A stretch of DNA of 64,000 bases from Thermoleophilia bacterium UBA6103 (GCA_002423545.1 DIWP01000001.1:25171-89170); one strand, 5' to 3'. Counted from the stretch's first letter, positions 1 to 40,068 are shown. Translations and numbers: made by a program. The notes: generated from the sequence alone by a model not told the origin.

Positions 1-252
1 GTACTGCTCGACGGTGATCAGCGGGTGGTCGCTGAGCTCGAGGTTCTCGCCGTACGGACGCCCCTTCATGAACTGGCCGACATAGACACGCTTGCCGTGG
101 CCGGCGGCCCGCACCGCCAGACCGAAGGCGGCCGTGGTCTTTCCCTTCCCGTCACCTGTGTAGAGGTGGACGTACCCCCTTCCGGCGCTCTCGGTGGCGC
201 CGCGTCCCCCGGCCTCAGCGCCCGGTCGTGGTGATGTCCTGGTGTCGGTCAC
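1..252 (-). CDS. cobO: cob(I)yrinic acid a,c-diamide / corrinoid adenosyltransferase (CobO/BtuR), 5' part only; gene runs off the window edge
   Basis: Minus-strand translation gives ...GRGYVHLYTGDGKGKTTAAFGLAVRAAGHGKRVYVGQFMKGRPYGENLELSDHPLITVEQY, the P-loop signature of BtuR/CobO. Probable GTG start at 250-252, preceded by AGGAGG (RC of 256-261). Not in the ORF track because it is truncated. Confidence 0.6.
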   Translation of the reverse strand, partial: MTDTRTSPRPGAEAGGRGATESAGRGYVHLYTGDGKGKTTAAFGLAVRAAGHGKRVYVGQFMKGRPYGENLELSDHPLITVEQY

Positions 253-357
253 CGGTCCTCCTGTCGTGACAGGGTGGAGTGGGGTCGTCGTCAAGTCGGG
301 TAGCGTCACGTCGGTTCGCTGCCCGGCCGGCAGCCGCCGGCAGATCGTCGACCAGCA

Positions 358-1383
358 TCACAGCGGCAGCTTCTTGTTCTTGAGTCCCATCACGGCATAG
401 GACGTCGCCAGAAGGGGCGTGGCCGAGATGCGACCGAGATGGTAGAAGGAGCCGTTCCTCGCCTGCATGGTGCAGAGGTAGTACACGGGAGATTTGCCGC
501 CTCTGCGCCAGGCGGCTCCCGCCGGGTCTTGACCGGCTGCGACGATACCCTGGATCGCGAGGGCGCTCGACTCGAGCACGGAGCCGCCGAAGTCGTAGGC
601 GAAGCCGCCGTCGCGCTGCTGCTTGGCCTTCATGAACTTCAGTGCGCCGCGGATGACACCGGAGGAACTGCTCACGCCGCCGGCCCGCAGCGCCTGGATG
701 GCGGCGCCGGTGGAATCGACATCGGGGCTGCCACCCGGATTCCACGAGAAGCCGCCGCTGCTGTGCGCCTGCGTCCGCAGCCACTGCACCGCCCGGGAGC
801 GGGCGGCGGATGCGCGCCCGGCGGCTTTGAGGGCCAGGACGGCATAGGTGGTGGTGCTGATAGCAGCGTAGCTGCCCTTGCCGCCGGCCGCGGTGGTGAA
901 GCGGCCGCTGGCGGCATCCTGGTAGGCGAGCAGCTTGACGACGAGATCGACTCGCTTCCTGCCGGCGCGTCGGATCAGGCTGGTCTTGCGCGCCGCCTTG
1001 TAGGCGAGGATGTACTTGGAGTACGTCGCGGCGGGGTTCTTGGGCGTCGTGCCGTCGGCCAACCGCTCGATGTCGAGTCCCTGCATGTACTGGATCGGGG
1101 TCTTGCCGCCCGCGCGCCGCCACTTGGCGGGATCCTGTCCGGCAGCACGGACGGCCATGACCACCCAGGGCGTAGCGGCCGATTGGCTCATCCCCTTGGC
1201 GCTGAAGCCGCCGGACCTGGTCTGACGGCTCTTCAGGTACTTGAGGGCGTTCTTCACCGCCGTCGAGGTCGACGGCAAGGCGGTCGCGTCCGGGGGCGCG
1301 GCGGCGGCTGCGAGGGTCAGAGACAGGGCCGCGCCGATAGCTGCGCCACAGAGCATCAGTGCGACGAGGCGCTTTGTCAGCAT
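358..1383 (-). CDS. secreted prenyltransferase/squalene-oxidase-repeat (alpha/alpha-toroid) protein
   Basis: Real start is the internal ATG giving MLTKRLVALMLCGAAIGAALSLTLAAAAAP (signal peptide). Five repeats with Q..GGF/GSF motifs (SGGFSAKG, SGRFTTAAGG, SGGFSWNPGG, DGGFAYDFGG, NGSFYHLG), typical of PFTB/SQHop cyclase repeats. Overlaps the upstream S-component stop (ATGnnnTGA-type coupling). Confidence 0.75.
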   Translation of the reverse strand: MLTKRLVALMLCGAAIGAALSLTLAAAAAPPDATALPSTSTAVKNALKYLKSRQTRSGGFSAKGMSQSAATPWVVMAVRAAGQDPAKWRRAGGKTPIQYMQGLDIERLADGTTPKNPAATYSKYILAYKAARKTSLIRRAGRKRVDLVVKLLAYQDAASGRFTTAAGGKGSYAAISTTTYAVLALKAAGRASAARSRAVQWLRTQAHSSGGFSWNPGGSPDVDSTGAAIQALRAGGVSSSSGVIRGALKFMKAKQQRDGGFAYDFGGSVLESSALAIQGIVAAGQDPAGAAWRRGGKSPVYYLCTMQARNGSFYHLGRISATPLLATSYAVMGLKNKKLPL

Positions 1384-2264
1384 GTCGCCTCCTTGTTGTC
1401 GTTGACTGGATCGTCGAGGAGCCGCACCTGGGTGCGGGTGCGATAGCGGGTCACGATCTTCACGGCCTGGGGGCCGAAGAGGAGCGCGCAGAGCACGGTG
1501 GCGGCCACATGGGCGGCGTCGAAGAAAGCGCCCTGAGCGTAGAGCGCGATGAACGCCGGCCACGTGTGCGCAGAGAACGTGATGTACATCCACAGCGTCA
1601 TGAACCAGCCGAACGCCAGCGACAGGGCGCCACCGACGAGGGCCAGCTCGCAGCGACCGGGTCGCCGACCGTGCCGGCCCATGAGGCCGCCGGCGAAGCC
1701 GACGGCACCCCAGGCGACCATCTGCCAGGGTGTCCAGGGCCCTTGCCCGAAGAAGAAATTGGACACGAGCGCCGTGGTGGCTCCGATCATGAAGCCGGCG
1801 CTGGGTCCGAACCCGATGCCGCCCACCAGGACGATGAAGGTCACCGGCTTGAAGTTGGGCAGCGAGGCGAAGAGGATGCGGCCTGCCGTGGCGAGCGCGG
1901 CGACGGCGGCGACGATGGCGATCTCCTGGGCGGGCACGGCGCGCAGGCCGTAGAGGGCAACGCCCAGCGCCACCACCGCCGCCACGAGTCCGAACGACAC
2001 CGCCCCCCAGTTCACGCCGCCGGGGTCGATGATCGTCCAGACGATGAGACCGGCCACCGTGCAGGCGGCAGCGGCGACGACCATTACGCCGGCGGGCGAT
2101 CGGCCGGACCCGGTGACGCGCCATCGTGAGGCGAGCGATGGAGGAGACGCTGTGAGGGCGGCTGCGAGCGGGGTCGCCGCGGCGCCGGACGGACGGGGCA
2201 TCTGATCCGTGAGCGTCGGTTGTTCGACGTCGCGACACGACGGAGAAGCGGTCGCTGCCGTCAT
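1377..2264 (-). CDS. ECF transporter substrate-specific (S) component
   Basis: Multi-TM protein with LPNFKPVTFIVLVGGIGFGPSAGFMIGATTALVSNFFFGQGPWTPWQMVAWG, characteristic of ECF S components. Start uncertain: ATG at 2264 (MTAATASPS...) or ATG at 2201 (MPRPSG...). Confidence 0.65.
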   Translation of the reverse strand: MTAATASPSCRDVEQPTLTDQMPRPSGAAATPLAAALTASPPSLASRWRVTGSGRSPAGVMVVAAAACTVAGLIVWTIIDPGGVNWGAVSFGLVAAVVALGVALYGLRAVPAQEIAIVAAVAALATAGRILFASLPNFKPVTFIVLVGGIGFGPSAGFMIGATTALVSNFFFGQGPWTPWQMVAWGAVGFAGGLMGRHGRRPGRCELALVGGALSLAFGWFMTLWMYITFSAHTWPAFIALYAQGAFFDAAHVAATVLCALLFGPQAVKIVTRYRTRTQVRLLDDPVNDNKEATC

Positions 2265-2290
2265 GTCTGTGCCGTATGGCGTCACGCGGC

Positions 2291-4027
2291 TCACAGGGCG
2301 GTCCAGACGACGTCGTCTTCGGTGAGTGCGCCCGGCAGATCGCGACGCAGGAGCCGGTTGATCTGTGTCGAGAAGAAGAGCGAGCCGTGCAGCGCCTCTC
2401 GAACCGGCGCGTCGGCCAGTATGCCGCCGTCGCCGAGCACCACGACACGGTCGGCGGTACGGGCCGCGAACTCCACGTCGTGCGTGACCACCACGACGCA
2501 GCGGCCGGCGCCGGCCCAACGACGCAGAAGGGCGGCAAGGTCGTTCTTGTGCGCCGGGTCCATGCCCCGCGTCGGCTCGTCCAGCACCACGACCGCAGGA
2601 TCGCCGCAGGAGACGATGGCCAGCGCCACGCGTGTCCGTTCGCCGCCGGACAGGTCGCGGGGGTCGCGGCCGAGCAGCGCTCCGAGGTCCAGATCCGAGA
2701 CCAGCATCGACCTCGTCGCCTCGGCCTCGGCAGGCGGGATGCCCAGTGTCGAGAACGAGAAGTCGAGTTCATCGGCGACGCTGTCCCGCACGAAGTAGGC
2801 GCCCGGGTTCTGGCCGAGGAAAGCACAGGTGCGTGCCGCTTCGGCGACGGACATCGACGTCACCTCGGTACCGGTCAGGAGGACCTTGCCGGTGAGGGGC
2901 CTGGCCATGCCGTTGAAGTGACGGACGAGGGTCGACTTGCCGGCGCCGTTCTCTCCCATGATGGCCACCAGGTCACCCGGCCACAGCGCCAGGTCGACCT
3001 CGTCGAGGACGGGCCGATCCGGCGGGTAGCCGGCCGTGAGGCGCCGGACCTCCACCGCGGCCATCGGCCGGCGTCGGAACATCCCGCGAGAGGACGGGCC
3101 CGCACCCTCCGTCGTAACCGCGGCGCTCGCGCTCGCGGTCGGTCCCGGCTCTCGGGTGGCGGCGGAGGCGAGGACGTCCGATCCGGCGAGCGCCAGCCTG
3201 CGACGCGCGTCCTTGACGGTCATGGGAAGCGCGACCAGGTCCTCTGCGGAGGCCGCTCCGTTGAGCCGACCGGCGAACAGCCGCGCCACCGGCGGCAGCA
3301 GCTCGCGGCGTCCCCGGGCGGCCCAGGCGGCAAAGCTCTGGGGGTCGGTATCCTGCAGGATGGCCCCGTCCTCCATGTAGAGCACGCGCGTCGCCAGGTA
3401 GAGGCATCGCTCGATGCGGTGTTCGGCGAGCACGATGGTCGAACCGGTGTCTTCAGACAGGCGTCGGACGGCGGCGAGGAGGTCTTCGGAGCTGACCGGA
3501 TCGAGCTGGGACGTCGGTTCGTCGAGCAGCAGAAGCTGCGGCTGCATCGCCAGGACGGCGGCGAGGGCCACCTTCTGGAGCTCTCCGCCCGAGAGCGTGG
3601 CCAGCTCGGCATGCCGCAGCCGCGAGAGGCCGAGAGAGAGCAGTGACTCCTCGACGAGTCGCGAGATCGCCGGGCCCGCCAATCCCAGGTTCTCGAGGCC
3701 GAACGCCAGCTCGCGCTCCACGCTGACCATGACGGCCTGGTTCTCCGGATCCTGGAAGACCATGCCGACGTGTTCGGCGAGGTCCCGCGGGTCGGTGGTG
3801 CGGGTGTCGAGACCGGCGATCACCGCATGCCCGGAGAACGTACCGCCATGGAAGTGCGGGACCAGCCCGCACAGGGCGCGCAGGAGCGTCGACTTGCCGC
3901 TGCCGGACCCGCCGATCACAAGGACGACCTCCGCCGGTCGCAGGGCGAGCGTCGCGTCACGCAATGCCGGCGACTGCCTTTCCGGGTAGGTGTAGGTGAC
4001 GTGTTCGAGTCGGGCGACCGGTTCCAT
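2291..4027 (-). CDS. ecfA: ECF transporter ATPase, fused tandem EcfA1-EcfA2 (two ABC domains)
   Basis: Two Walker A motifs (GGSGSGKST, GENGAGKST), two ABC signatures (LSGGELQKVALA, LSGGERTRVALA) and two Walker B/D-loops (LLLLDEPTSQLD, VVVLDEPTRGMD). Start MEPVARLEHVTYTY at 4027 overlaps the EcfT stop (TGATG). Confidence 0.9.
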   Translation of the reverse strand: MEPVARLEHVTYTYPERQSPALRDATLALRPAEVVLVIGGSGSGKSTLLRALCGLVPHFHGGTFSGHAVIAGLDTRTTDPRDLAEHVGMVFQDPENQAVMVSVERELAFGLENLGLAGPAISRLVEESLLSLGLSRLRHAELATLSGGELQKVALAAVLAMQPQLLLLDEPTSQLDPVSSEDLLAAVRRLSEDTGSTIVLAEHRIERCLYLATRVLYMEDGAILQDTDPQSFAAWAARGRRELLPPVARLFAGRLNGAASAEDLVALPMTVKDARRRLALAGSDVLASAATREPGPTASASAAVTTEGAGPSSRGMFRRRPMAAVEVRRLTAGYPPDRPVLDEVDLALWPGDLVAIMGENGAGKSTLVRHFNGMARPLTGKVLLTGTEVTSMSVAEAARTCAFLGQNPGAYFVRDSVADELDFSFSTLGIPPAEAEATRSMLVSDLDLGALLGRDPRDLSGGERTRVALAIVSCGDPAVVVLDEPTRGMDPAHKNDLAALLRRWAGAGRCVVVVTHDVEFAARTADRVVVLGDGGILADAPVREALHGSLFFSTQINRLLRRDLPGALTEDDVVWTAL

Positions 4028-4923
4028 CACGGCTCTGCCGGCTGCAGGGGGGTACCGCCGGTGGGGCGCAGCAGCGCCGCGTCGTGGGCTCGCCGTCGGA
4101 TCGCCAGGCGCGTGTCGACGACGCCCGGCAGCACCAGGGTCGCTGCGACGAGCGCTGCGGCCGTGACGAGCCACGATGGGTCGCTCAGGTCCGGGAAGGG
4201 GTCGTCGGTGAGCGGGAAGTAGTTGAACGACGCGATCCCCGTCGCCAGTCCGGCAAGCACTGCGGCGACGGCGCCCGCGGCACAGAGCACGATGAGCACG
4301 TCGGCCGCCCGCCAGCGGCGGCCGCGGTGCCACGCCCGCCGGCCGGGACGTCCGTAGCCCCGCGCCTCCATCGACTCGGCGACGTCGGTGGCACGCTCCA
4401 GGCTGCGCGATATCAACGCTCCGAGGAGCGGTAGGCGTCGCGTCGCCTTCTGTCGCCAGCTGCCGCGATCGAGCTCCACGCCGCGCGCGCGCTGAGCGTC
4501 GGAGATCCGTGCCGCATCCCGTGAGAGCACCGGGAACATGCGTGTCGCCAGTGAGACCACCAGACCGGAACGGAACGACACGCGGCTCATGATCGCGAGC
4601 TGTTCGTCCTGGTCGAGCAGTGTGGTGTAGAGCGCGAAGGCGGCGACGACGGCGACCAGCCTGACCGCCATGCCGACGGCGAAGTAGATGCCCTGGATGG
4701 AGATGGCGATGTGCAGCGGCCCGAGCTCGGCCTGCCAGAGCACGTCGAGCCCCGCCTGGCTCACCAGAGGGTTGACGATGAACAGGAAGACGGTGATGTA
4801 GAGGCCGAAGCGGAGGTACGGCCAGGCGGCGCGTAGACGACGCGAGAGGACCAGGACGAGAAGGATGACAGCGAGGACGACGGCCACCTGGATGGGGTTG
4901 GCGATCACGATCGATGCCACCAT
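4027..4923 (-). CDS. ecfT: ECF transporter transmembrane (T) component (EcfT/CbiQ family)
   Basis: Start MVASIVIANPIQVAVVLAVILLV...; hydrophobic EcfT-like core with ...LDEQLAIMSRVSF...RGYG... Stop overlaps the ecfA start. Confidence 0.8.
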   Translation of the reverse strand: MVASIVIANPIQVAVVLAVILLVLVLSRRLRAAWPYLRFGLYITVFLFIVNPLVSQAGLDVLWQAELGPLHIAISIQGIYFAVGMAVRLVAVVAAFALYTTLLDQDEQLAIMSRVSFRSGLVVSLATRMFPVLSRDAARISDAQRARGVELDRGSWRQKATRRLPLLGALISRSLERATDVAESMEARGYGRPGRRAWHRGRRWRAADVLIVLCAAGAVAAVLAGLATGIASFNYFPLTDDPFPDLSDPSWLVTAAALVAATLVLPGVVDTRLAIRRRAHDAALLRPTGGTPLQPAEP

Positions 4924-5086
4924 GAGAGCGGCGATGCCGGCCAGAGCCGCCGCCGGCTGAGCCGCGGCCAGGCCGTGGGTGGGCGGTCGCCCTGCCCAGC
5001 GATCGCGACGGACACCGCCGGCTGCCGATCGGCCGCCGGGTCCGACCGCCGAGGATCGTCCCTGCTGTGCCGTGTCAGAGGGCACG

Positions 5087-6025
5087 TCAGTCTTCTCCGC
5101 CGGCCTGCTGTGGGAGGCGCACGAGCTCGTCGCCACGCAGGCCGATCGCCACGTAGGCGCCCGGTATCCCGTCGCCGAGTCGCTCGATGAGCGTGCCGAT
5201 GGCCCGTGCGTCGCGGCCGATGAAGACCAGCAGCGTCGCCTCGGCGTCCTCCGGGTGCGGCGCGCCGAGCACGGCCGCGTCGAGTTCGCCTCGCGGCGTG
5301 CCGGTGTAGTCCAGAGCCAGCAATGTCGGGCCGTCGATGGCGACGAAGATGCCGGCCTGTGCGCCGGGATCCAGCAACGCGGACAGCCATGTGTCCCCCT
5401 GCAGCTCCGCGACGGTCGCCACGACCAGCGACGGATCGGACGGCAAAGGCGAGAGCGGTCGCGCAGCATCGACCGTGAGTCCCTGTGCCGTAGCCCACGC
5501 CGCGACAGCGTCGGCCTCAGCGTCCGCAAGCAGCGCCAGTGAGCTGTCCTGCCAGGGCTGCGGGAAGGCCTGCAGCACCACCGGCATGAAGCCCGAGCCC
5601 TGCCAGGCGTGGTGGTCCCACCAGATCGTCTCACCGCCGGTCAGGCGCTGGTCGGCGGCGCCGACCTGCCCCATCCGGCCGGCGACCCAGTAGAACCAGT
5701 CGCGGGGCTCGCCGGTGGCGCCGAAGGTACTCTCGATGCCGTCGATGGCGTTCACGAAGCCACCACCGTAGGCTGTCTTGACCTCAGCCTGAGTGGCCAG
5801 GACCTCCATCACATCGGTCTCGTCCTCGAAGTCGACCAGGACGTCACGCAGGACGTCGGCACCGAAGCCCGTGGAGATCACGAGCCGGATCTTGTCGGCT
5901 GGGACTGCCGCGGCCGCGGGAGAGGCGTCGTCGCGGGCCGACGAGGCAGTGCTCGAGGTCCCGTCCTCCTCACTGCGGACGCCGGCGCAGCCGGTCACCG
6001 ACACGAGCAGCAGGCCAAAGACCAT
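5087..6025 (-). CDS. secreted lipoprotein, DUF4430-like (transcobalamin/intrinsic-factor beta-domain-like)
   Basis: Start MVFGLLLVSVTGCAG (lipobox VTGC). Contains DWFYWVAGRMGQVGAADQRLTGGETIWWDH, matching the W.Y.VNG....GA....GD.V.W DUF4430 pattern. DUF4430 assignment is from memory of that family, not a search. Confidence 0.65.
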   Translation of the reverse strand: MVFGLLLVSVTGCAGVRSEEDGTSSTASSARDDASPAAAAVPADKIRLVISTGFGADVLRDVLVDFEDETDVMEVLATQAEVKTAYGGGFVNAIDGIESTFGATGEPRDWFYWVAGRMGQVGAADQRLTGGETIWWDHHAWQGSGFMPVVLQAFPQPWQDSSLALLADAEADAVAAWATAQGLTVDAARPLSPLPSDPSLVVATVAELQGDTWLSALLDPGAQAGIFVAIDGPTLLALDYTGTPRGELDAAVLGAPHPEDAEATLLVFIGRDARAIGTLIERLGDGIPGAYVAIGLRGDELVRLPQQAGGED

Positions 6026-6287
6026 GACTATCCCCGGCAAAGCGGCCGCTGGGGCCACGGAGCCTGCGCCTTCACGCCGCCACTGCGGCGTGATGACGCG
6101 TCGTAGCCGGAGCTGTAGACTGCGCAGAGCAGCGCTCCAGGGGCGTGCGACGGGTGCGACCGCGGGAATCGGGGGGACTCGGTCGCTCACTCGCACGCCC
6201 CTGCAGCGTTGCTCTCGTGTGTTCGTCTGGTCTCCATCTCGACGCTCTTGACCCTTCAACAGGTCCGTCCTCTTGTGTTGGTGGGAG

Positions 6288-6330
6288 GCCGGCACCCGAC
6301 GGCCGTGAAGGGGACCGCCGGGTGCCGGCT
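6288..6330 (-). terminator. GC-rich hairpin just after the stop of the 6348-7493 gene (possible weak terminator or attenuator; no U-tract)
   Basis: Minus-strand GCCGGCACCCG-(20 nt)-CGGGUGCCGGC, 11-bp perfect stem, followed by CUCCCACCAACAC (not U-rich). Confidence 0.3.
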
Positions 6331-6347
6331 CATCGCAGGCCGTGCGA

Positions 6348-7493
6348 CTACTTGCGGACGCTGACGTTGTGCATCTTGACCGTCGAGACGCGGCCCCACT
6401 CGTCCCAGGCCTTCAGGTAGACCGTGACCCGCTTGCCGATCCGTTTGCCTGTCCTGCCCGTCCAGGTGAAGCCCTGCCGGCCGCCGCTTGCGTGGGTCCT
6501 CCAGCCGCGGGCGAGCGTCGTGCTGCCGCTCTTGATCCACCACTGGACGCGGGCGGCCTTGTTGATCTTGTACCGCACCGTCAGAGCACGATTGCGCCGG
6601 AACTTCTTCGGTGTGGCCGTCACGCCGCTGAACGCCGGCTTGCTGCCCACATTGACGATGACCGTGTCGGAGCGTGCGTACACGGTGCCGTCCATGGCCT
6701 TCTCGGCCCAGACGTAGTACGTGCCGTTGCCGAGGTTCGGCAGGTCAAGCCGCTTGTTGGAGCGACTGGCCTTGAACCTGACCTTGGCGCCCGCCAGCTT
6801 GAGGCCCTTGGAGCGCGAGCCGGTCAGGACGCTGGCCCGGTTACCGACGTAGACGGTCGCGCCGGACACCTCGGGGAACTGGTCCGGCGTCTGGATCATG
6901 CTCGGATCGCTGATGCCGAAACGGGTGGCGTCGGCCTGGCTGTTGACCTTGGCCAGGTCGTCACCCTTGATCGTCAGGTCCAATGCCTGTCCCGGTGTCA
7001 GGGCGCGCACCGGCGAGCCGTCGATGACGAGCAGCGTGCTCGGCTTCGAGAACGTGTTGTCGGGGTTCTGGAACCAGAGGTAGTCGTCATCGGCGACGCT
7101 CGGCAGGTTGGCGGCTCCCAAAGGCGAGCTATAGCCGTTGACGGCGAACGACCACCAGTCCGCGTAGGTCACCGGGTCCATAGCCTGGCGGGAGAACCAG
7201 CCGACGAACGGCCCCATACCGAAGACATCGAAGTCCCAGGTGACGCCGGCCATCTCGGTGGCAAGGGCGGTCGCTCCGAAGGCCGTGGCCTCCGTCGAGG
7301 TGTACTCGGTCCCCTCGCTGTCGTAGTAGGTCCCGCCTCCGGCGGCTTCCTCGACCCACGTCTGCGGCAGGGCGGTGAAGCCCTTGGCCTCGACTCTGAC
7401 GCTGGTCTCGACGGCGAGCGCCGCCGGGGCGGCGAGGAGCACGGTCAACAGGACGAGCCCCAACGCCAGTGGCACGGACATCCGCTTCTTCAC
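6348..7493 (-). CDS. secreted two-domain protein: N-terminal DUF4430-like domain + C-terminal Ig-like (FlgD-Ig-like) basic domain
   Basis: GTG start (MKKRMSVPLALGLVLLTVLLAAPAALA signal peptide) preceded by AAAGGAGGA RBS. Contains WWSFAVNGYSSPLGAANLPSVADDDYLWF (DUF4430-like). C-terminal K/R-rich beta-rich domain. First gene after the B12 riboswitch. Confidence 0.7.
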   Translation of the reverse strand: MKKRMSVPLALGLVLLTVLLAAPAALAVETSVRVEAKGFTALPQTWVEEAAGGGTYYDSEGTEYTSTEATAFGATALATEMAGVTWDFDVFGMGPFVGWFSRQAMDPVTYADWWSFAVNGYSSPLGAANLPSVADDDYLWFQNPDNTFSKPSTLLVIDGSPVRALTPGQALDLTIKGDDLAKVNSQADATRFGISDPSMIQTPDQFPEVSGATVYVGNRASVLTGSRSKGLKLAGAKVRFKASRSNKRLDLPNLGNGTYYVWAEKAMDGTVYARSDTVIVNVGSKPAFSGVTATPKKFRRNRALTVRYKINKAARVQWWIKSGSTTLARGWRTHASGGRQGFTWTGRTGKRIGKRVTVYLKAWDEWGRVSTVKMHNVSVRK

Positions 7494-7544
7494 GGATCCT
7501 CCTTTCCGGCGCCGGTCGCATTCCCCCCTGCTTCGCGAAGCTGC

Positions 7545-7583
7545 CCGAAGAAAAGGACCCCGTCGCTTCCGCTACGGGGTCCG
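7545..7583 (-). terminator. intrinsic terminator / riboswitch expression platform
   Basis: Minus-strand GGACCCCGU-agcggaagcg-ACGGGGUCC (9-bp perfect stem) followed by UUUUCUUC. Located between the B12 box and the RBS/GTG of the 7493 gene. Confidence 0.7.
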
Positions 7584-7639
7584 GCAAGGCTCGAAACGAA
7601 CAGAGCCCCCATCCGCGTGGGAAGCAGCTTCACGTAAGC

Positions 7640-7812
7640 GGCTCGCTCGGTTTTCTGACTTCCGGTCGATTGCCTGGCCGTCGCTGCCTTCCCGGGCCTC
7701 TGCCCAGTGGCTCTCCTAAAGGAGACCGCGACGGTCGCGACCGGTCACAGCGGCGGGACCGTGCCGGAGTTGCACCGACTTCCCGTTGGGCGCTACAGCC
7801 GCGCGCCATCGG
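7640..7812 (-). ncRNA. cobalamin (B12) riboswitch
   Basis: Minus-strand RNA reads ...GUAGCGCCcaacGGGAAgucGGUGcaAcUCCggcaCGGUCCCGCCGCUGUGAccgg ... GCCACUGggcagaggcccGGGAAGGCagcgacggccaggcaaucgACCGGAAGUCAGAAAACCgaGC. This matches the conserved core (GGGAA..GGUG.A.UCC...CGGUCCCGCC.CUGU.A), the GCCACUG element and a B12-box-like AGUCAGaaaACC. It lies directly upstream of the ECF/DUF4430 operon. Confidence 0.75.
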
Positions 7813-7918
7813 TAGATGAACGAGTGCATGCTAGCGCAGCGAGCAGGGTGTGTCCAGTGGGAGATTTTCTCGTCTCAGCGGGATGCTGCGGTGATGAGCG
7901 GGGCGGTCGCTGCGCCGG

Positions 7919-8419
7919 CTACTTGGGCAGCTCTTCCCGAACGTCCCAGAGGACGTCTCCGCTGCGGTAGTCGAGCATGGCGATGATCAGGTCCTGGCCG
8001 CTGCGGCGCACAGTGCCCTCGATCTGCCAGACGAAGCGGAAGGGCGGCACGATCGTGGCCGCCTGATCGAGATCGGCGGGAAGGCCGGTGAGGTCGGCAC
8101 CATCGGGCAGCGGCTCGAAGGTGTGGGCAGCGCCCGGACTCAGGTAGAGCAGCCGGGCCGCCACGACCTCGAAGTCACTGCCGCGGAACAGCTGATCGGC
8201 CTCCTGGTACGCGGCGCCGGAGGTCTTCAGACGCGAGTCGCCGGGGACGGTGAGGCCTGCCACCAGGAACCGCCAGCTCCGCCACGGATGCGTGAGGAAG
8301 CTCGCGTTCTGACTCCCGGCAGTGTACCGATACGCCACGAGCGAGGGCAGATAGAAGACGACCAGCGCCGCGACGAGCGCCACCAGCGCCCAGAACAGCT
8401 TCGATCTGCCTCTCAGCAT
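7919..8419 (-). CDS. hypothetical membrane-anchored protein
   Basis: ORF with N-terminal TM helix (LFWALVALVAALVVFYLPSLV) and good GC3. Immediately downstream of the MBL hydrolase gene. Confidence 0.45.
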   Translation of the reverse strand: MLRGRSKLFWALVALVAALVVFYLPSLVAYRYTAGSQNASFLTHPWRSWRFLVAGLTVPGDSRLKTSGAAYQEADQLFRGSDFEVVAARLLYLSPGAAHTFEPLPDGADLTGLPADLDQAATIVPPFRFVWQIEGTVRRSGQDLIIAMLDYRSGDVLWDVREELPK

Positions 8420-8452
8420 GGTGCCGCCGCGCCTCCTCCCGTCCGCTGGTCG

Positions 8453-9304
8453 TCAGTAGCGCGCAAGCTCACGCACATGCAGGTCATCGGGCACCGTCGT
8501 GCGTGGGAAAAGCGCTCTCGCCGACCTTCCCTGCTCGGCATAGTAGTCCTCATCGAAGAGCGGGTTGAGGTGCACCAGCAGCAGCTCCTCGACTCCGGCT
8601 CGCGCAGCCAGCTGCGCCGCCTGTCTGGCCGACGTGTGCGACGCATACGCATGGCGGACCATGTCTTCCCAGCCGGGCTCGCCCTCCTCCTTGCCGTCGA
8701 TCCAGGCCTCGTGGATCAGCACCTCGGCTCCCGCGGCAAAGGCTGCCGTCGCCTCGTCGTACACCGTGTCGGTGGCCAGCACGAAATGGTCGACGACCCT
8801 GTACGCGACGCTGACGTCGGCGTGAGACTGAGCCCGCACCATGACGCGAAGCCCGGCGATGTCGTTCTCACCGGCGCACACGGTGCTCAGGCTCACCCGC
8901 TTCTGACTGGCCCAAGCCTCGGGAAAGAACGGTGGCCGGATGAGGGACGGCACCCCGTCCGGCGGCTCGACACCGTTGACCGCGGCCTCCGGGACGTGGA
9001 CGGTGACACGAAGCCGGGGAAAGACCCCGGAGAGGTAGCTGAGGCCGACTGTATGGTCGAGGTGATAGTGCGTCAGCAGAAGATGCACCTCGTCGACGCC
9101 GTCGAGCAGGCTCGCGGCCGGTGGGCGCAGGAAGCGGCCGAGCCCGGTACCGGCGTCCAGCACCAGCAGCGTGGCGCCATCACGGTAGGCCAGACACGTG
9201 GTGGCTCGTCGTGGCGTGGGGATCCAACCCTGGGTGCCGAGGATCATGAGGAGGGGCCTGTCATCGCGCCCTTCGGGGTCGTACCGGTGGGTGTCGGATG
9301 CCAT
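8453..9304 (-). CDS. MBL-fold metallo-hydrolase
   Basis: HYHLDH (HxHxDH) motif, LLVLDAGTG. Start taken at MASDTHRYDPEG... Confidence 0.8.
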   Translation of the reverse strand: MASDTHRYDPEGRDDRPLLMILGTQGWIPTPRRATTCLAYRDGATLLVLDAGTGLGRFLRPPAASLLDGVDEVHLLLTHYHLDHTVGLSYLSGVFPRLRVTVHVPEAAVNGVEPPDGVPSLIRPPFFPEAWASQKRVSLSTVCAGENDIAGLRVMVRAQSHADVSVAYRVVDHFVLATDTVYDEATAAFAAGAEVLIHEAWIDGKEEGEPGWEDMVRHAYASHTSARQAAQLAARAGVEELLLVHLNPLFDEDYYAEQGRSARALFPRTTVPDDLHVRELARY

Positions 9305-9561
9305 GCTCCTCCCGTCCGTGGTCGAGGGTTGCTGCCACGCGGCCATCGCCGTCCGGCCTGCGGGCACCTGCATTCTAACGCCGGTCCGGGTCGCCCCGCC
9401 GGGCCGCCGAGGTACGCACTGCGGCGCGAGCCCTGTCCCATGCGCGGGATGCCCGCTCGCTCGTCTGCCGGTCGACGCGTGTGATATAGGTTGGAGCCAT
9501 CGTGCGCGGCTCCGGGTGTGGCGTGAGGGGCCTGTACGGCAAAGGGAGGTCGCCGGGCATC

Positions 9562-11826
9562 ATGTTCGCTGCGCTGGGCCGGTTCACATACCGCTGCCGC
9601 TGGTACATCATCGCCGTCTGGGTGGTGGTGCTGCCGTTCGGCATCTACGGCGCCACGCATGTGCAGAACGTGCTCCAGGGCGGCGGCTTCTCGATCGCCG
9701 GCTCGCCCTCGGACCTGGCTCTCAAGGAGGCCAACAAGCACCTCACGCTCGGCGAGTCGGCTCTCTACGTCGTGTTCGAGAGCGAGGACCTCGACGCCCG
9801 CGGCGACGAGTTCATCGAGCTGCAGAAGGAAGCGCTCTCGCGCTTCGTCCCGGGCGAGTTCCCCTATCTGCAACGGGTCGAGACCTTCGCCTCGGTGCGC
9901 GATCCCAACCTCGTCTCGCGCGATGGACGCGCCTCGGTGGCCATCCTGGCGTTCGACGAACCGTTCGACAAGGTGCAGGCCATGATGCCCCGCATCCGTT
10001 CCGCCGTGCGAGACTCCGGCCTGAAGCACTACATCACCGGGGAGCCGGCCGTCTTCGAGGAGATCGAGGCCGTCTCCACCGAAGATGCGGCCCGGGCCGA
10101 GTACTACACGTTGCCGGTGGCGCTGGTCGTGCTCGTCCTGGTGTTCGGCAGCCTGGTCGCGGCCGGTCTGCCGATCATCGGCGGCATCGTCGCGGTCAGC
10201 ACCACCCTCGGCTTCCTGTTCCTGTTCGCGCGCGCCGTCGACCTCTCGATCTACACGCTGAACGTGACGACCATGCTTGGTCTGGCGGTGGGCATCGACT
10301 ACTCGCTGCTCATGGTGGGACGCTTCCGCGAGCAGCTGCACGCCGGCGACAGCGTGGCCAGGGCGGTCGAGGTAACGGTCTCGCGGGCCGGCCAGTCGAT
10401 CTTCTACTCGGGCCTGGCGGTCATGGTCGGCCTCACCGGCCTCCTCATCTTCCAGTTCATGGCCCTGCGCTCGATGGGGCTGGGGGGCTGCTTCGTCGTG
10501 TTCTTCTCGATGGTCGTGGCGCTGACCCTGCTGCCGGCGCTGCTGGGCGTGCTCGGACCGCGTGTCGACCGGCTGCGGCTCTGGCGCTCGCGCGGCACGG
10601 AGGGGACGTTCTGGCTGCGCTGGTCGGCCTGGGTCATGCGCCATCCGGTCTGGATCATGGTGGCGGTGACGGCAGTCATCGTCACGCTGTCGATCCCGGC
10701 GTTCCGCATGGAGACCGGTGTCTCGACATCGGAGGTACTGCCACCGACCGCCGAGGCTCGTCAGGGAGACAGGATCCTCAACGAGCGCTTCAATCCTTCA
10801 CTGGCCACCGGCATCCTCGTCCTCGTCACCTGGGACGACGAGTCGTCGCCGTTCGCGCTCACCAACATCATCAAGCTCTGGAACTTCGGGCAGGAGCTGA
10901 AGCGTCAGCCCGGGGTCAGCGAGGTCTCGAGCGCCGTCACGCCACCCGATCTGAGCCGCTTCGGGTCGCCGGCCGAGTTCTTCGGCGCGCTCGCCGGCGA
11001 GGCGGCCGGATCCGGCGGTCTTGAAGACAGCCTGTCGGGTGACGCCTACCTTGAGATCAAGGCGATGATGAGCGCCACCGCCGGACCTGGAGCGCTGCTG
11101 TACGTGGTGGTACCGAAATGGAAGGACAACGCGCCGCAGTCCCGGGAGCTGGCGCTCAAGCTCGCCGGACTGGAGCCGCCGGCCGGTACGACGATCTGGG
11201 TCGCCGGTGTGGCGGCGGGCCTCAACGACTTCCTCGACGGGCTGTACGGGCGCTTTCCGTGGGTGGTCCTGTATGTGATCGTCGCCACTTCGCTGGTCTT
11301 CCTCGTCATGCTCCGCAGCCTGCTGCTGCCGCTCAAGGCCGTCGTGGTGAACGCGTTGTCGATCTTCGTGAGCTTCGGCGCCCTCGTCTTCGTGTTCCAG
11401 GAGGGGCACTTCTCCAGTGTCCTTGACTTCGAGGCGCCGGGCTGGGTGGAGGCCACCCTGCCGGTCATCCTCTTCTGCGTCCTGTTCGGCGTGTCGATGG
11501 ACTACGAGGTCTTCCTGCTGACCCGCATCCGCGAATACTGGCTCGAGACGCACGACAACGTGGAGAGCGTCGGCCTCGGTCTGGCCAAGACGGGGCGTAT
11601 CATCACCAGCGCGGCGATGATCATCGTGATCGTCGGGGGCGCCTTCGCCTTCACGAGCATCATCGTGACCAAGGCGCTGGGTCTGGGGCTCGCCATGGCT
11701 GTGGCGATCGATGCCACGATCATCCGCGTCCTCCTCGTGCCGGCCGCGATGCGTCTGTTCGGCGACTGGAACTGGTGGCTGCCGAAGTGGCTCGACAAGC
11801 TGCTCCCGCATGTGCAGACACGCTGA
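9562..11826 (+). CDS. MMPL-family (RND superfamily) membrane transporter
   Basis: Start MFAALGRFTYRCRWYIIAVWVVVLPFG with AAAGGGAGG RBS about 12 nt upstream. Two 6-TM bundles with periplasmic domains; MmpL-like motifs (GIDYSLLMVGRFREQL, GVSMDYEVFLLTRIREY). Confidence 0.85.
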   Translation: MFAALGRFTYRCRWYIIAVWVVVLPFGIYGATHVQNVLQGGGFSIAGSPSDLALKEANKHLTLGESALYVVFESEDLDARGDEFIELQKEALSRFVPGEFPYLQRVETFASVRDPNLVSRDGRASVAILAFDEPFDKVQAMMPRIRSAVRDSGLKHYITGEPAVFEEIEAVSTEDAARAEYYTLPVALVVLVLVFGSLVAAGLPIIGGIVAVSTTLGFLFLFARAVDLSIYTLNVTTMLGLAVGIDYSLLMVGRFREQLHAGDSVARAVEVTVSRAGQSIFYSGLAVMVGLTGLLIFQFMALRSMGLGGCFVVFFSMVVALTLLPALLGVLGPRVDRLRLWRSRGTEGTFWLRWSAWVMRHPVWIMVAVTAVIVTLSIPAFRMETGVSTSEVLPPTAEARQGDRILNERFNPSLATGILVLVTWDDESSPFALTNIIKLWNFGQELKRQPGVSEVSSAVTPPDLSRFGSPAEFFGALAGEAAGSGGLEDSLSGDAYLEIKAMMSATAGPGALLYVVVPKWKDNAPQSRELALKLAGLEPPAGTTIWVAGVAAGLNDFLDGLYGRFPWVVLYVIVATSLVFLVMLRSLLLPLKAVVVNALSIFVSFGALVFVFQEGHFSSVLDFEAPGWVEATLPVILFCVLFGVSMDYEVFLLTRIREYWLETHDNVESVGLGLAKTGRIITSAAMIIVIVGGAFAFTSIIVTKALGLGLAMAVAIDATIIRVLLVPAAMRLFGDWNWWLPKWLDKLLPHVQTR

Positions 11827-26990: not shown

Positions 26991-28202
26991 TCAGTCGATG
27001 TGGAACGAGTCGACGATGCGGCTCAGCACGGCCCAGTCGGCCTTCCAGTCGTCGCTCCGGCCACGGACGATGACGCTGTACACGGAGCTGTTGTGCCAGA
27101 TGTCGTAGGTGCGCGTGCGCAGCTCCGTGCCGTCGCTCTGTCGTCGGGTGACGTCGATGACCCAGGCGGTGCTGCCGTTGAGCTTCACCGCCTGCGGCGA
27201 ACGCACCTTCACGACCGCCGGCTCGTCGCGGAGCTGCTCGGCAGCGGTGCGGTAGAACGTCTCCAGCAGACGCGACTGGCTGTTGCCGATGCCCTCCGGC
27301 GCCTCTGCGACGCCGACCGCCGCCGCCACCAGCGGCGAGGCGGCGAAGTCGCTGAACTCGGCCCCGAACTCAAGCTGTGACGTCGGGTCCTCCGACTGGG
27401 CGACAACGGGGAACGCGGCCGGCAGCTCGAGCGAGAAGGAGTAGCGGGCGTTCTCGTAGAGGACGTTGCGCGGCTGCAGACCATCCATGCCGGCCAGCGG
27501 CTGCAGCTCGATGCTCTGCACGACGGCGTCCAGGGCCGCCTCGGTCTTGTCCCACTGATCACGTGGTGCGTACTCCCGGATGGTGTAGACGAAACGCCCC
27601 AGCACCGCGACCGACAGGCGCACGTGCAGCTCGGTGGCGGCCGCCTGGTCGTAGCCGACGGCGTCGACGCTGACGGCATCCACGGAGCCGCCCAGCGCCG
27701 AGAGCAGCGGCTCGTCCCATAACGCTCCGTCCCAGGCGCGATCCAGCTCGGCGAGCTGGACATCGAGAGCGTAGCGTGCCAGACCGATGCCCTCTTCGCC
27801 GTTCGAGAAGTCGAGCTGCTGCACGGTGACGCCGACGCCGGGCGAGGCGGCAAGGCTGTCGGCGTCGGTCCTGGTCAGGTTCACGTCGAGCGTCTTGAGG
27901 CCCTTGAGCTCCAGCTCGCGCCCGGTGAGCAGCGAAGGCGAGAGCGGCAGGCTCGACGTGCTCTCCGTGCTTTCCAGCCGGAAGTCACCGGCATCATAGG
28001 TGAGCGAGAAGCCCCAGCGCTCGGCCTCGTAGGCCGTCGGCTGACCGGCGTCTGCCGTCGGCGACGCTGTGACCCGCTGTACGGCGGGCTCGACCGGATC
28101 GTCGCCGCCGCAGGCGCCGATCGACACGGCCGGAAAGGCCAGCAGCAGCGCGAGCACGACGCTCACAAGAAGCCTTGGGAAGGGTCCGGGAAGAAGTCGC
28201 AT
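26991..28202 (-). CDS. secreted lipoprotein of unknown function
   Basis: MRLLPGPFPRLLVSVVLALLLAFPAVSIGACGG (lipobox SIGAC). 403 aa with good GC3. Divergent from the ABC transporter at 28287. Confidence 0.55.
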   Translation of the reverse strand: MRLLPGPFPRLLVSVVLALLLAFPAVSIGACGGDDPVEPAVQRVTASPTADAGQPTAYEAERWGFSLTYDAGDFRLESTESTSSLPLSPSLLTGRELELKGLKTLDVNLTRTDADSLAASPGVGVTVQQLDFSNGEEGIGLARYALDVQLAELDRAWDGALWDEPLLSALGGSVDAVSVDAVGYDQAAATELHVRLSVAVLGRFVYTIREYAPRDQWDKTEAALDAVVQSIELQPLAGMDGLQPRNVLYENARYSFSLELPAAFPVVAQSEDPTSQLEFGAEFSDFAASPLVAAAVGVAEAPEGIGNSQSRLLETFYRTAAEQLRDEPAVVKVRSPQAVKLNGSTAWVIDVTRRQSDGTELRTRTYDIWHNSSVYSVIVRGRSDDWKADWAVLSRIVDSFHID

Positions 28203-28286
28203 GCCCCCGATGATAGCAGCCGTCCGGTTGAGACGGCGTTGAGCCGGGAAGCATGTGCACGTCGTACGTCTCTGCGAGGGGGCCGC

Positions 28287-29252
28287 ATGCCGGGACCACC
28301 AGCGTCCGCCGCGATCGTGGCACCGCCCGTGGCGCAGGACCTCCACGAGGACGTCATCGAAGTCCGCGGGTTGCACAAGACGTACGGCGGTGTGCCGGCG
28401 GTGCGGGATGCCACGTTCTCCGTTCGGCGGGGCGAGATCTTCGGGCTTCTGGGCCCCAACGGGGCCGGCAAGACCACGACTGTGGAGTGTCTGCAGGGGC
28501 TGCGGTCGGCGGACGGCGGCTCCATCAGCGTCCTGGGGCTCGACCCGCGCCGGCAGTCGGGCAAGCTGAGACGTCGCATCGGCAGTCAGCTCCAGCAGTC
28601 GGCGCTGCCCGATCACATCAAGGTCTGGGAGGCGCTCGATCTCTTCAGCACGCTGATGCACACCGGGACCGACTGGCGCGTCCTGATGGAGCAGTGGGGG
28701 CTGTCCGCGGTCCGGAGCCGGCGTTTCCACCATCTGTCCGGCGGTCAGCGGCAGCGGCTCTTCGTGGCCCTGGCGCTCGTCAACGGGCCGGAGCTGGTCT
28801 TTCTCGACGAGATGACGACCGGCCTGGACCCGGCGGCCCGGCGCGACGCCTGGGAGCTGATCCGGGAGATCCGCGACCGCGGTGCCACAGTGGTCCTGGT
28901 GACGCACTTCATGGACGAGGCGGAGCGGCTGTGCGACCGGCTGGCGGTCGTCGAGGCCGGTCGCGTGGTGGCCGTGGCATCGCCGCAGGAGCTGATCGCC
29001 GCACATGCCGGCCGTGTGCGCGTGGTCTTCACCTGTACGGAGTGCGACCTGTCCTGGCTCGACCGCGTGCCGCACGTGCACGGCGTCGAGCGTCACGGCG
29101 CCCGGGTCGAAGTGGACGGCGACGGGCCGGTGCTGGCGATGGTGGCCCATGCCCTGGTGGCACACGGCCTGGAGCCGGCCGACCTTCATCTCGAGGAGCC
29201 GACCCTGGAGGACGCCTACCTGCATCTCACCGGCCACCTGATCAGGGAATGA
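28287..29252 (+). CDS. ABC transporter ATP-binding protein (ABC-2 / DrrA-like)
   Basis: Start MPGPPASAAIV with GAGGGGG RBS. Walker A GPNGAGKTT, signature LSGGQRQRLFVALAL, Walker B LVFLDEMTTGLD. Confidence 0.85.
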   Translation: MPGPPASAAIVAPPVAQDLHEDVIEVRGLHKTYGGVPAVRDATFSVRRGEIFGLLGPNGAGKTTTVECLQGLRSADGGSISVLGLDPRRQSGKLRRRIGSQLQQSALPDHIKVWEALDLFSTLMHTGTDWRVLMEQWGLSAVRSRRFHHLSGGQRQRLFVALALVNGPELVFLDEMTTGLDPAARRDAWELIREIRDRGATVVLVTHFMDEAERLCDRLAVVEAGRVVAVASPQELIAAHAGRVRVVFTCTECDLSWLDRVPHVHGVERHGARVEVDGDGPVLAMVAHALVAHGLEPADLHLEEPTLEDAYLHLTGHLIRE

Positions 29253-29268
29253 AGGGCGGCGAACGGCG

Positions 29269-30012
29269 ATGAAGATGCTGCTGCGCCTCACCTGGGTCGA
29301 GATCAAGCTGCTGACACGCGAACCGCTGACCCTGATCTTCACGTTCGGACTGCCGTTGCTCATCCTGCTGGTGCTGGGCGGCATCTTCCGGACGTCGGAC
29401 GTTCTGGACGACGTCCTCGTCGGCCGGCAGCCGATCGACTGGTACGTGCCGGCGTACATGGGTCTGGTGACGGCATCGATCGGCCTCATCTCGCTGCCGG
29501 TCCATCTGGCCAGCTATCGGGAGCGCGGCGTCCTGCGGCGCTTTCGCGCGTCCGGGGTCTCGGAGCTGAGCGTCTTCGGGTCACAGCTCCTGGTCAGCCT
29601 CGGCATCGCCCTCATCGGGTCGGGGTTGCTCTATCTGCTTGGGGCACTGGTCTACGGAGCCGCCCCGCCGCTCGACCCGCTGCGCTTTGTCCTCGCGTTC
29701 ATCGTGAGCGTCGCCATGTTCGCCGCCATCGGCATCCTGCTGGCCGCGGTGATACCGACGGCACGTGCCGTCCAGGGTCTGGGGCTCATCCTCTGGTTCG
29801 TGATGCTGTTTGTCTCGGGTACATCATCGCCTCTGCAGCTTCTGCCGGTCTGGTTGCAGCGCGTCGGGCAGGCCCTGCCGCTCTACCACGTGGTGCAGGC
29901 TCTCGAGCGTCCCTGGAACGGCCGAGGCACCGATCTGGTCCACCTGAGCATCGTCGCCGCCGTCTGTGTGGGGGCGTCGCTCCTGGCGGCGCGCCTCTTC
30001 CGCTGGGATTGA
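29269..30012 (+). CDS. ABC-2 family transporter permease
   Basis: 6-TM protein directly downstream of the ATPase gene. Confidence 0.8.
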   Translation: MKMLLRLTWVEIKLLTREPLTLIFTFGLPLLILLVLGGIFRTSDVLDDVLVGRQPIDWYVPAYMGLVTASIGLISLPVHLASYRERGVLRRFRASGVSELSVFGSQLLVSLGIALIGSGLLYLLGALVYGAAPPLDPLRFVLAFIVSVAMFAAIGILLAAVIPTARAVQGLGLILWFVMLFVSGTSSPLQLLPVWLQRVGQALPLYHVVQALERPWNGRGTDLVHLSIVAAVCVGASLLAARLFRWD

Positions 30013-39409: not shown

Positions 39410-39898
39410 ATGACGATGGAGGCACCCCAGCAGATCACACCGAACGGACTGCCCGACTACCTGGAGGTGATCACCAGAGCGATCTTCCAGGCCGGCATGT
39501 CGTGGCGGGTCATCGCGGCCAAGTGGGACGGATTCCGCGAGGCCTTCCAGGGCTTCGACCCGGGGAAGGTGGCAGCCTTCACGCTGGACGACATCGAACG
39601 GCTGGCGGCGGATCCGCGGATCGTCCGCAACCGCCGCAAGATCGAGGCGACGGTGCTCAACGCACAGGAACTGCTCGAGTTCGACCGTGAGCCCGACGGG
39701 TTCAAGGCCTACCTGCAGTCGCACGGCGGGTTCGACGCCACCGTGGCCGACCTGCGCCGGCACTTCAGGTTCCTCGGCGACACCGGCGCGTACTACTTCC
39801 TCTACGTCGTCGGCGAGCCGGTGCCGCCGCACGAGGAGTGGATGGCGGCCCATCCGGGCGCCGGCCGGGGTACGGCGAAGCGGAGCCGCCAGGCCTGA
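39410..39898 (+). CDS. tag: DNA-3-methyladenine glycosylase I (Tag)
   Basis: IFQAGMSWRVIAAKWDGFREAF, RIVRNRRKIEA, GDTGAYYFLYVVG are Tag family signatures. Start ATG 39410 or 39416. Confidence 0.8.
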   Translation: MTMEAPQQITPNGLPDYLEVITRAIFQAGMSWRVIAAKWDGFREAFQGFDPGKVAAFTLDDIERLAADPRIVRNRRKIEATVLNAQELLEFDREPDGFKAYLQSHGGFDATVADLRRHFRFLGDTGAYYFLYVVGEPVPPHEEWMAAHPGAGRGTAKRSRQA

Positions 39899-40068
39899 GC
39901 GGTCCCGAGGTCGCCGGGCCTTCGCCTTCGACGGTCCGGAGATCCAAGACCGCCGCCTCCCGCCGGCAACGTTCTTCCTGCATTCCTGCAGAAACGGCGG
40001 ATGATGACCGGTCTCCGTCGTGTTGTCGTCCCGCTCGTCCCTCTTGTCGCTCCGGTATCATTCAAGGC

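Follow-up and report, generated by a model that had tools for sequence, protein, structure and literature searches.

The window analysed here is the whole stretch of 64,000 nucleotides from Thermoleophilia bacterium UBA6103 (GCA_002423545.1, DIWP01000001.1:25171-89170), and the system in question lies at its start. Seven co-directional genes, numbered g1 to g7 from the regulatory end and all on the minus strand, stand 3' of a cobalamin riboswitch and a terminator-like hairpin (Table 1). They encode two exported proteins with SLBB/DUF4430 domains (g1 and g2), the T component, fused ATPase and S component of an energy-coupling factor (ECF) transporter (g3 to g5), an exported alpha/alpha-toroid protein (g6) and the corrinoid adenosyltransferase CobO (g7). 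A first-pass annotation had placed a B12 riboswitch and a terminator ahead of a seven-gene string ending in cobO, and had taken the whole for a B12-riboswitch-controlled ECF importer locus; every element was found as described, the gene labels being confirmed with Pfam and NCBIfam. That annotation holds, since the Rfam model RF00174 matches over its full length, the profile models for DUF4430 (PF14478, in g2), for prenyltransferase repeats (PF00432 and PF13243, in g6) and for the S component (PF12822, in g5) match as well, and the gene set with its riboswitch is conserved in related genomes.

Riboswitch, transporter core and operon

The riboswitch is the only gathering-level Rfam match in the 64-kb window. 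A promoter candidate lies 8 nt 5' of it, one such site being found against 0.0 expected in shuffled sequences. On its other side, 46 nt 3' of the aptamer, the arms GGACCCCGU and ACGGGGUCC form a G+C-rich hairpin of 9 bp (7582..7555) followed by the U-tract UUUUCUUC (7554..7547). This hairpin is retained in minimum-free-energy folds; the pattern scanner overlooked it because its loop is 10 nt long. The start codon of g1 (7493) is preceded by a GGAGG ribosome-binding site.

Table 1. Coordinates of the riboswitch, hairpins and genes of the locus in the window
Feature	Position	Strand	Evidence or remark
Sigma-70-like promoter candidate, TGGACA-17-TAGCAT	7828..7856	-	consensus match only
Cobalamin riboswitch aptamer, RF00174	7628..7820	-	75.5 bits (gathering 31.5), E 8.4e-17, model 1-189 of 189
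Terminator-like hairpin GGACCCCGU/ACGGGGUCC then UUUUCUUC (putative expression platform)	7547..7582	-	read from sequence
g1, secreted, signal peptide ...AALA/VE; N-terminal SLBB/DUF4430-like and two Ig-like beta-sandwich domains	6348..7493	-	381 aa
Long intercistronic hairpin	6126..6215, in spacer 6026-6347	-	-65.9 kcal/mol, z -5.2
g2, lipoprotein, lipobox VTGC; DUF4430/SLBB domain and C-terminal domain of ~160 aa	5087..6025	-	PF14478, E 1.4e-10
g3, EcfT (CbiQ-family T component)	4027..5085	-	PF02361, E 5.5e-24, 85.4 bits (cut-off 25)
g4, fused EcfA-EcfA' ATPase	2291..4027	-	578 aa, two ABC_tran domains in one chain
g5, CbrT-like S component	1377..2294 or 2084	-	PF12822, 36.8 bits (cut-off 30.7)
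g6, exported single-domain alpha/alpha-toroid, N-terminal signal sequence	358..1383	-	PF00432 and PF13243, ~300 aa
g7, cobO/btuR, ATP:corrinoid adenosyltransferase	1..252	-	PF02572, E 3.2e-21; first 84 codons, clipped by window edge

From g2 to g6 the genes abut or overlap, which suggests translational coupling: g3 starts 1 nt past the g2 stop, g4 overlaps the g3 stop as TGATG, g5 overlaps the g4 stop as GTGA if its GTG at 2294 is the start (the gene callers prefer an ATG at 2084), and g5 and g6 share 7 nt. Larger gaps of about 320 nt and 105 nt separate g1 from g2 and g6 from cobO, respectively; a terminator was looked for in the latter and not found, and the GTG start of cobO is preceded by GGAGG. 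The identical locus is present on a 213-kb metagenome contig of the Joint Genome Institute (3300002498, TOLCLC_10004862; here the parent contig, L001), where cobO is complete (194 aa) and meets parB-parA-rsmG head-on, so that the operon ends with it. Gene callers also differ on the length of g3 (352 or 298 aa), and g2, called there as a product of 312 aa, has an alternative GTG start at 6058.

Within the core, the S component points to the ligand. Searched against all PDB chains, g5 has a sole match up to an E-value of 1, namely CbrT of Lactobacillus delbrueckii (6FNP_A, E 1.2e-11), aligned over about 150 residues (123-273 of the 305-aa reading); the NCBIfam folT-family model is reached at E 0.008 only. 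Compared with CbrT (182 aa), g5 has an N-terminal extension with one or two extra hydrophobic helices before residue 123. The fused ATPase g4 scores 337.4 bits with the NCBIfam model TIGR04520 (ECF_ATPase_1; cut-off 315). Because g5 matches only CbrT, with a cobalamin riboswitch in front of the operon and a corrinoid adenosyltransferase behind, the core is very probably a dedicated (group I) ECF-CbrT-type importer, whose predicted corrinoid ligand rests on riboswitch, cobO and homology.

Exported proteins, their fusions and their neighbourhood

In transcobalamin and intrinsic factor an alpha6/alpha6 toroid (the alpha domain) and a beta-grasp SLBB domain (the beta domain) clamp the corrin ring between them (passages in PMC1796856; PMC6257451). 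In the window the two domains do not share a polypeptide, g6 being separate from g1 and g2. As judged from sequence, the most telling evidence on the role of the exported proteins is the occurrence of fusions among their homologues. Two of these (P0038 and P0044) unite a toroid, a DUF4430 domain and a membrane anchor in one chain, which is the architecture of transcobalamin. A third (P0053; L016, 7393-9141) joins a CbrT-like S component to a toroid, likewise in one chain, and its operon comprises two DUF4430 genes, EcfT and EcfAA', with RF00174 upstream and a divergent gene for a PduO-type adenosyltransferase alongside. For the toroid protein g6 the preferred reading is a counterpart of the alpha domain of transcobalamin and intrinsic factor, the DUF4430 proteins taking the place of the beta domain.

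The likeness of the DUF4430 pair to the beta domain of transcobalamin had been proposed in the first-pass annotation, and it is borne out by the core SLBB motif that the g1 and g2 families share (hhalign probability 89%, E 2.2e-6, 53 columns). A transcobalamin-type beta domain is assigned to g2 by its Pfam score (PF14478, 41.9 bits, cut-off 23.8) and to g1 through its homologues, PF14478 being matched by 24 of 30 and FlgD_ig (PF13860) by 12 of 30, together with the hhalign result. The AlphaFold2 model of g1 (pLDDT, the predicted local distance difference test, 87) consists of an alpha/beta domain at the N terminus and, behind it, two beta-sandwich domains. In a Foldseek search with this model, tandem Ig/FN3 matches swamp the result and the N-terminal domain is uninformative; for this reason the SLBB assignment of g1 rests on the Pfam matches of its homologues and on hhalign. 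The family alignment of g2 extends to Firmicutes. Its C-terminal domain of about 160 aa (5087-5590) is conserved from Thermoleophilia to homologues in Clostridium and Aneurinibacillus, and matches nothing in Pfam or the PDB.

As for g6, it has the alpha/alpha-toroid fold with repeats of the prenyltransferase/squalene-cyclase family. It was not found to belong to the Cobalamin_bind family (PF01122), which is matched by 10 of the 55 members of its own toroid family (best E 8.2e-7). A profile of these 55 homologues, run against PDB sequences, retrieved neither transcobalamin nor intrinsic factor nor haptocorrin even at E-values up to 10, so that specific sequence membership of g6 in the B12-carrier family cannot be claimed.

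Toroid homologues of about 505 aa, 35% identical to g6, are also found in a second kind of cluster, devoid of ECF genes, on two metagenome contigs (L033, 4484-11023, Ga0190265_10000297; L032, 488-6990, Ga0075325_1000274). The order there is an open reading frame (ORF) of 371 or 400 aa, another of 860 or 867 aa (neither with a Pfam match), the toroid, a MotA/ExbB-like protein and DUF2149, and two RF00174 riboswitches lie in the cluster. The cluster may encode an uncharacterised B12 system that draws its energy from the ExbB-like protein. Since the cluster is likewise under RF00174 control, the toroid family is tied to B12 independently of ECF transporters.

The neighbourhood survey drew its loci from three sources, namely genomes with g1 homologues, long contigs with toroid homologues and a metagenome scan, and scored them by tblastn with the window proteins. 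The nearest genomes with g1 homologues are metagenome-assembled genomes (MAGs) of Thermoleophilia and other Actinomycetota. Toroid, T component, fused AA' and CbrT-like S component occur together on every ECF-type contig long enough to show the set, and the set recurs in Actinomycetota, in Chloroflexota-type and in archaeal contigs (11 loci of Thermoleophilia/Actinomycetota, one named Anaerolineae, one archaeal-looking). SLBB genes accompany the ECF set in the 11 actinobacterial loci and in the archaeal-looking one. Some genomes have the set rearranged as divergent units, g2-T-AA'-S and g1-toroid, and cobO lies close by. Of 19 informative loci, 12 have RF00174 on the same strand and directly upstream. 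The B12-linked neighbours of the relatives comprise, besides RF00174, cobO or pduO, corrinoid-protein genes and a gene for a ribonucleotide reductase with a TSCPD domain, which, on domain content, I take to be of the B12-dependent class II.

In an actinobacterial MAG (L014, 1-2910) the 3' part of a cobalamin riboswitch, clipped at the locus end, comes first, next a 701-aa PQQ-like beta-propeller/DUF5719 protein and only after it DUF4430-T-AA'-S-toroid; the beta-propeller protein would be a further accessory type. The archaeal-looking locus (L017, 4635-11331), on a contig filed at NCBI under [Eubacterium] cellulosolvens, has, besides a toroid-DUF4430 fusion, another DUF4430 gene and one for an ECF S component, with neither adjacent T or A genes nor a riboswitch. 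It adjoins a corrinoid (B12-binding) protein and a RACo-type activase, and a divergent small helix-turn-helix protein there has a weak DUF4430 match.

The spacer between g1 and g2 holds a long hairpin (Table 1), found at the same place in two relatives, L007 (6761-6852) and L020 (7273-7350), whose g1 proteins are 55% and 64% identical. Across the three relatives 7 of 38 pairs are kept through double, compensatory changes, and the apical sequence is conserved. No copies were found elsewhere in the window, hence the hairpin is no dispersed repeat; the spacer, searched against Rfam with permissive settings, gave no family, the only matches being meaningless ones to microRNA precursors, which are due to the presence of a long hairpin. 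A second, shorter hairpin lies directly 3' of the g1 stop (6288-6329), likewise in L007 and L020. The long hairpin may serve in processing (by RNase III) or in stabilisation, and so adjust how much secreted g1 is made relative to the membrane parts.

The remainder of the window (fatty-acid synthesis, MMPL, ABC exporters, radical SAM and others) holds nothing related to B12. Just upstream of the riboswitch (7919-9373, minus strand, and 9502-11826, plus strand) are a 166-aa ORF without a family, a metallo-beta-lactamase-fold protein and a divergent MMPL transporter; their synteny is kept in L020 and L021, and a link to B12 is not evident. Two large ORFs of 832 aa (26991-29489, minus strand) and 466 aa (39838-41238, plus strand) have a coding-like G+C content at third codon positions and no Pfam family at E-values up to 1e-5, the sole Pfam trace in the former being PsbP at E 0.007.

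A proposed capture mechanism and its alternatives

Taken together, the locus may be explained as a dedicated ECF-CbrT-type importer, repressed by adenosylcobalamin, with an extracytoplasmic capture unit that resembles transcobalamin or intrinsic factor in split form. Under B12 shortage the aptamer would be empty, the terminator hairpin would not form and the seven genes would be transcribed; adenosylcobalamin would turn the operon off through a transcription-terminating riboswitch. Outside the membrane, the toroid g6 and one of the two SLBB proteins, be it the secreted g1 with its Ig-like domains or the lipoprotein g2, would clamp the corrinoid and hand it to the CbrT-like S component, which, powered by EcfT and the fused EcfAA' ATPase, would bring it in. 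CobO would then adenosylate it, producing the ligand of the riboswitch and closing a feedback loop. There is precedent for a split binder, as the two fragments of cleaved intrinsic factor, IF30 and IF20, together still bind cyanocobalamin tightly (PMC6257451). Given this precedent and the fusions described above, a split, surface-located, transcobalamin-like binder feeding CbrT is the most economical reading, and the explanation as a whole I regard as reasonably probable.

Several observations weigh against it. By every score the toroid g6 is nearer to terpene cyclases than to B12 carriers, and g1 itself falls below every Pfam threshold. In 7 of the 19 informative loci RF00174 does not lie directly upstream on the same strand: in three it stands before a neighbouring cobO, in one it is on the opposite strand and in three it is absent (one of them archaeal); for L009 and L010 a permissive Rfam search of the intergenic regions revealed no hidden riboswitch. 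The gene beside the toroid has no Pfam match in the Anaerolineae locus (L015) or in two loci of the same layout (L018, L019), and in L015 its comparison with the g2 family by hhalign was negative; the pairing of alpha and beta domains is thus not universal. ECF-CbrT of L. delbrueckii, which transports cobalamin and cobinamide, functions without helper proteins (PMC5997447), and the sole experimentally studied operon of this layout, that of Latilactobacillus sakei, has been linked to heme uptake (bioRxiv 10.1101/864751). The likeness of the toroid to cyclases, the three loci L015, L018 and L019 and the helper-free L. delbrueckii transporter, together with the predicted nature of binding and hand-off, are the reasons for holding the clamp-and-deliver part of the explanation with restraint, as only somewhat favoured.

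The main rival grants that the importer core is regulated by B12 and denies that the exported trio supplies it with substrate: the helpers would bind and hold corrinoids yet not deliver them, serving in storage or sequestration at the wall, in cobamide selection or in envelope tethering. The helper-free transport by L. delbrueckii speaks for it, as do the 320-nt structured spacer that sets g1 apart from the coupled g2-g6 block and the Ig-like domains of g1, which fit the wall tethering proposed for such fusions in passages of Burroughs et al. (PMC1796856). The P0053 fusion, however, puts the toroid physically on the transporter, and across phyla the genes for toroid and SLBB proteins adjoin ECF genes or are translationally coupled to them; I consider this rival unlikely, though worth keeping in mind. 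Much less probable is that heme or another tetrapyrrole is the substrate. In L. sakei, deletion of lsa1836-1840 lowers heme uptake, and heme has been modelled between the alpha-like and beta-like proteins (bioRxiv 10.1101/864751); here, a strong cobalamin riboswitch stands in front and a corrinoid adenosyltransferase at the operon end, the S component matches CbrT, and the relatives carry RF00174, cobO/pduO, the TSCPD ribonucleotide reductase or corrinoid-protein genes.

Two further readings were considered. One takes g6 for an extracytoplasmic isoprenoid enzyme, akin to class II terpene cyclases or prenyltransferases, or for a binder of isoprenoid-like ligands. Its best matches in sequence and structure are indeed squalene-hopene cyclase, drimenyl diphosphate synthase and MstE, and its motif DVDS aligns with the DxDD region of the cyclases. 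In the 55 homologues, however, this region reads D-x-(D/N)-(S/T), the second Asp being replaced by Asn in 25, while Asp occupies the third position in only 2 and Ser or Thr does so in 47. Conservation of 60% is reached by no Cys or His, so the family has no prenyltransferase zinc site; moreover, g6 is a single exported toroid, and the family is without exception linked with an ECF module or a B12 riboswitch. A role as terpene cyclase or prenyltransferase was rejected on the evidence of motifs and localisation, and the reading in its broader form is highly improbable. The idea of the first-pass annotation that the toroid recognises an isoprenoid-like tail or lower ligand is likewise not supported, the catalytic motifs of isoprenoid enzymes not being conserved and the alpha-domain reading being simpler. 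The other reading makes the locus a CbiMNQO-type importer of cobalt or nickel, which would supply cobalt for B12 synthesis. Cobalt transporters are often under B12 riboswitches, the T component matches Pfam CbiQ and several 'cobalt transporter' ATPase models match. Against this, no family match to a CbiM/CbiN-type metal S component was obtained, g5 matching CbrT and PF12822 instead, g3 reaches 49 bits with the CbiQ equivalog model TIGR02454 (cut-off 111.8), and exported B12-carrier-like proteins would make no sense for a metal ion. The cobalt-transporter reading was rejected on the S-component evidence and is scarcely credible.

Returning to the split binder, a more specific proposal has the toroid and SLBB proteins assemble round the corrinoid, in the manner of an intrinsic factor split by nature, and dock on CbrT; it is put forward tentatively, at a little short of even. 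If true, it would make an ECF transporter dependent on extracytoplasmic substrate-binding proteins, contrary to the textbook view; the CbrT-toroid and toroid-SLBB fusions would mark the docking order, and the animal B12 carriers would descend from the bacterial form with two genes. In the usual description, ECF transporters function with no soluble binding protein. A B12 importer recruiting transcobalamin-like capture proteins would qualify this rule; it would also show by what means monoderm bacteria compete when corrinoids are scarce, and would have a bearing on the origin of animal B12 carriers in bacteria.

Comparison with known systems

The closest characterised transporter is ECF-CbrT of L. 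delbrueckii (6FNP; Santos et al. 2018, PMC5997447), with which the present locus has in common a homologous S component, EcfT and two EcfA-type ATPase domains, as well as a linked adenosyltransferase gene (pduO there, cobO here). Whereas CbrT of L. delbrueckii shares a general ECF module (group II), the module here is dedicated and its ATPases are fused; g5 has an N-terminal extension of 40-110 residues, and three exported accessory proteins are co-transcribed. Neither a toroid nor a riboswitch has been reported for the nrdJ-cbrS-cbrT-pduO cluster of L. delbrueckii (PMC5997447).

The operon type itself was anticipated by Burroughs, Balaji, Iyer and Aravind (2007, PMC1796856). Passages of that work describe secreted or anchored bacterial transcobalamin-like SLBB proteins with signal peptides, for which B12 scavenging was predicted, SLBB domains fused with Ig domains or with alpha/alpha toroids, a further SLBB paralogue within the operon and linkage to CbiO/CbiQ, and on these the present locus agrees point by point. 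The work predates the definition of ECF transporters and of CbrT, and riboswitch and S component are not mentioned in the passages concerned. Compared with the operons they treat, toroid and SLBB domain are here encoded by different genes, in an uncultured actinobacterial host with Thermoleophilia as relatives.

In L. sakei, lsa1836-1840 (Verplaetse et al. 2019, bioRxiv 10.1101/864751) likewise comprises an S component, a fused AA', a T component and exported proteins resembling transcobalamin's beta and alpha domains, and the authors proposed extracellular scavenging followed by hand-off to the S component. There, the assignment of heme was based on docking and on the phenotypes of deletions, neither a riboswitch nor an adenosyltransferase is described, and there is one beta-like protein, against two here. 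Riboswitch, cobO and the CbrT match favour a corrinoid over heme in the present case. The heme assignment has muddied in the literature an idea that dates from 2007. It follows that the system is not new, the operon type having been predicted in passages of Burroughs et al. (PMC1796856) and the five-gene layout described by Verplaetse et al. The first-pass annotation had called the accessory proteins uncharacterised. As regards experiments on B12 this stands, no experimental study of B12 binding by such proteins having been found in the searchable literature; otherwise it does not, since a B12-scavenging role was predicted in the passages of 2007 (PMC1796856) and the layout has been described in L. 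sakei.

The mammalian carriers transcobalamin, intrinsic factor and haptocorrin are soluble single chains taken up by receptor-mediated endocytosis. Here, in contrast, the parts are separate polypeptides, one of them anchored by a lipid, coupled to an importer of the ATP-binding cassette type, and in sequence the toroid stands closer to terpene cyclases. The operon unites a strong riboswitch, a CbrT homologue and cobO, and has the three accessory types as separate, expressible genes, which makes the locus a good candidate for the missing biochemistry. It is a clean test case, with an unusually clean ligand assignment, rather than a discovery in itself.

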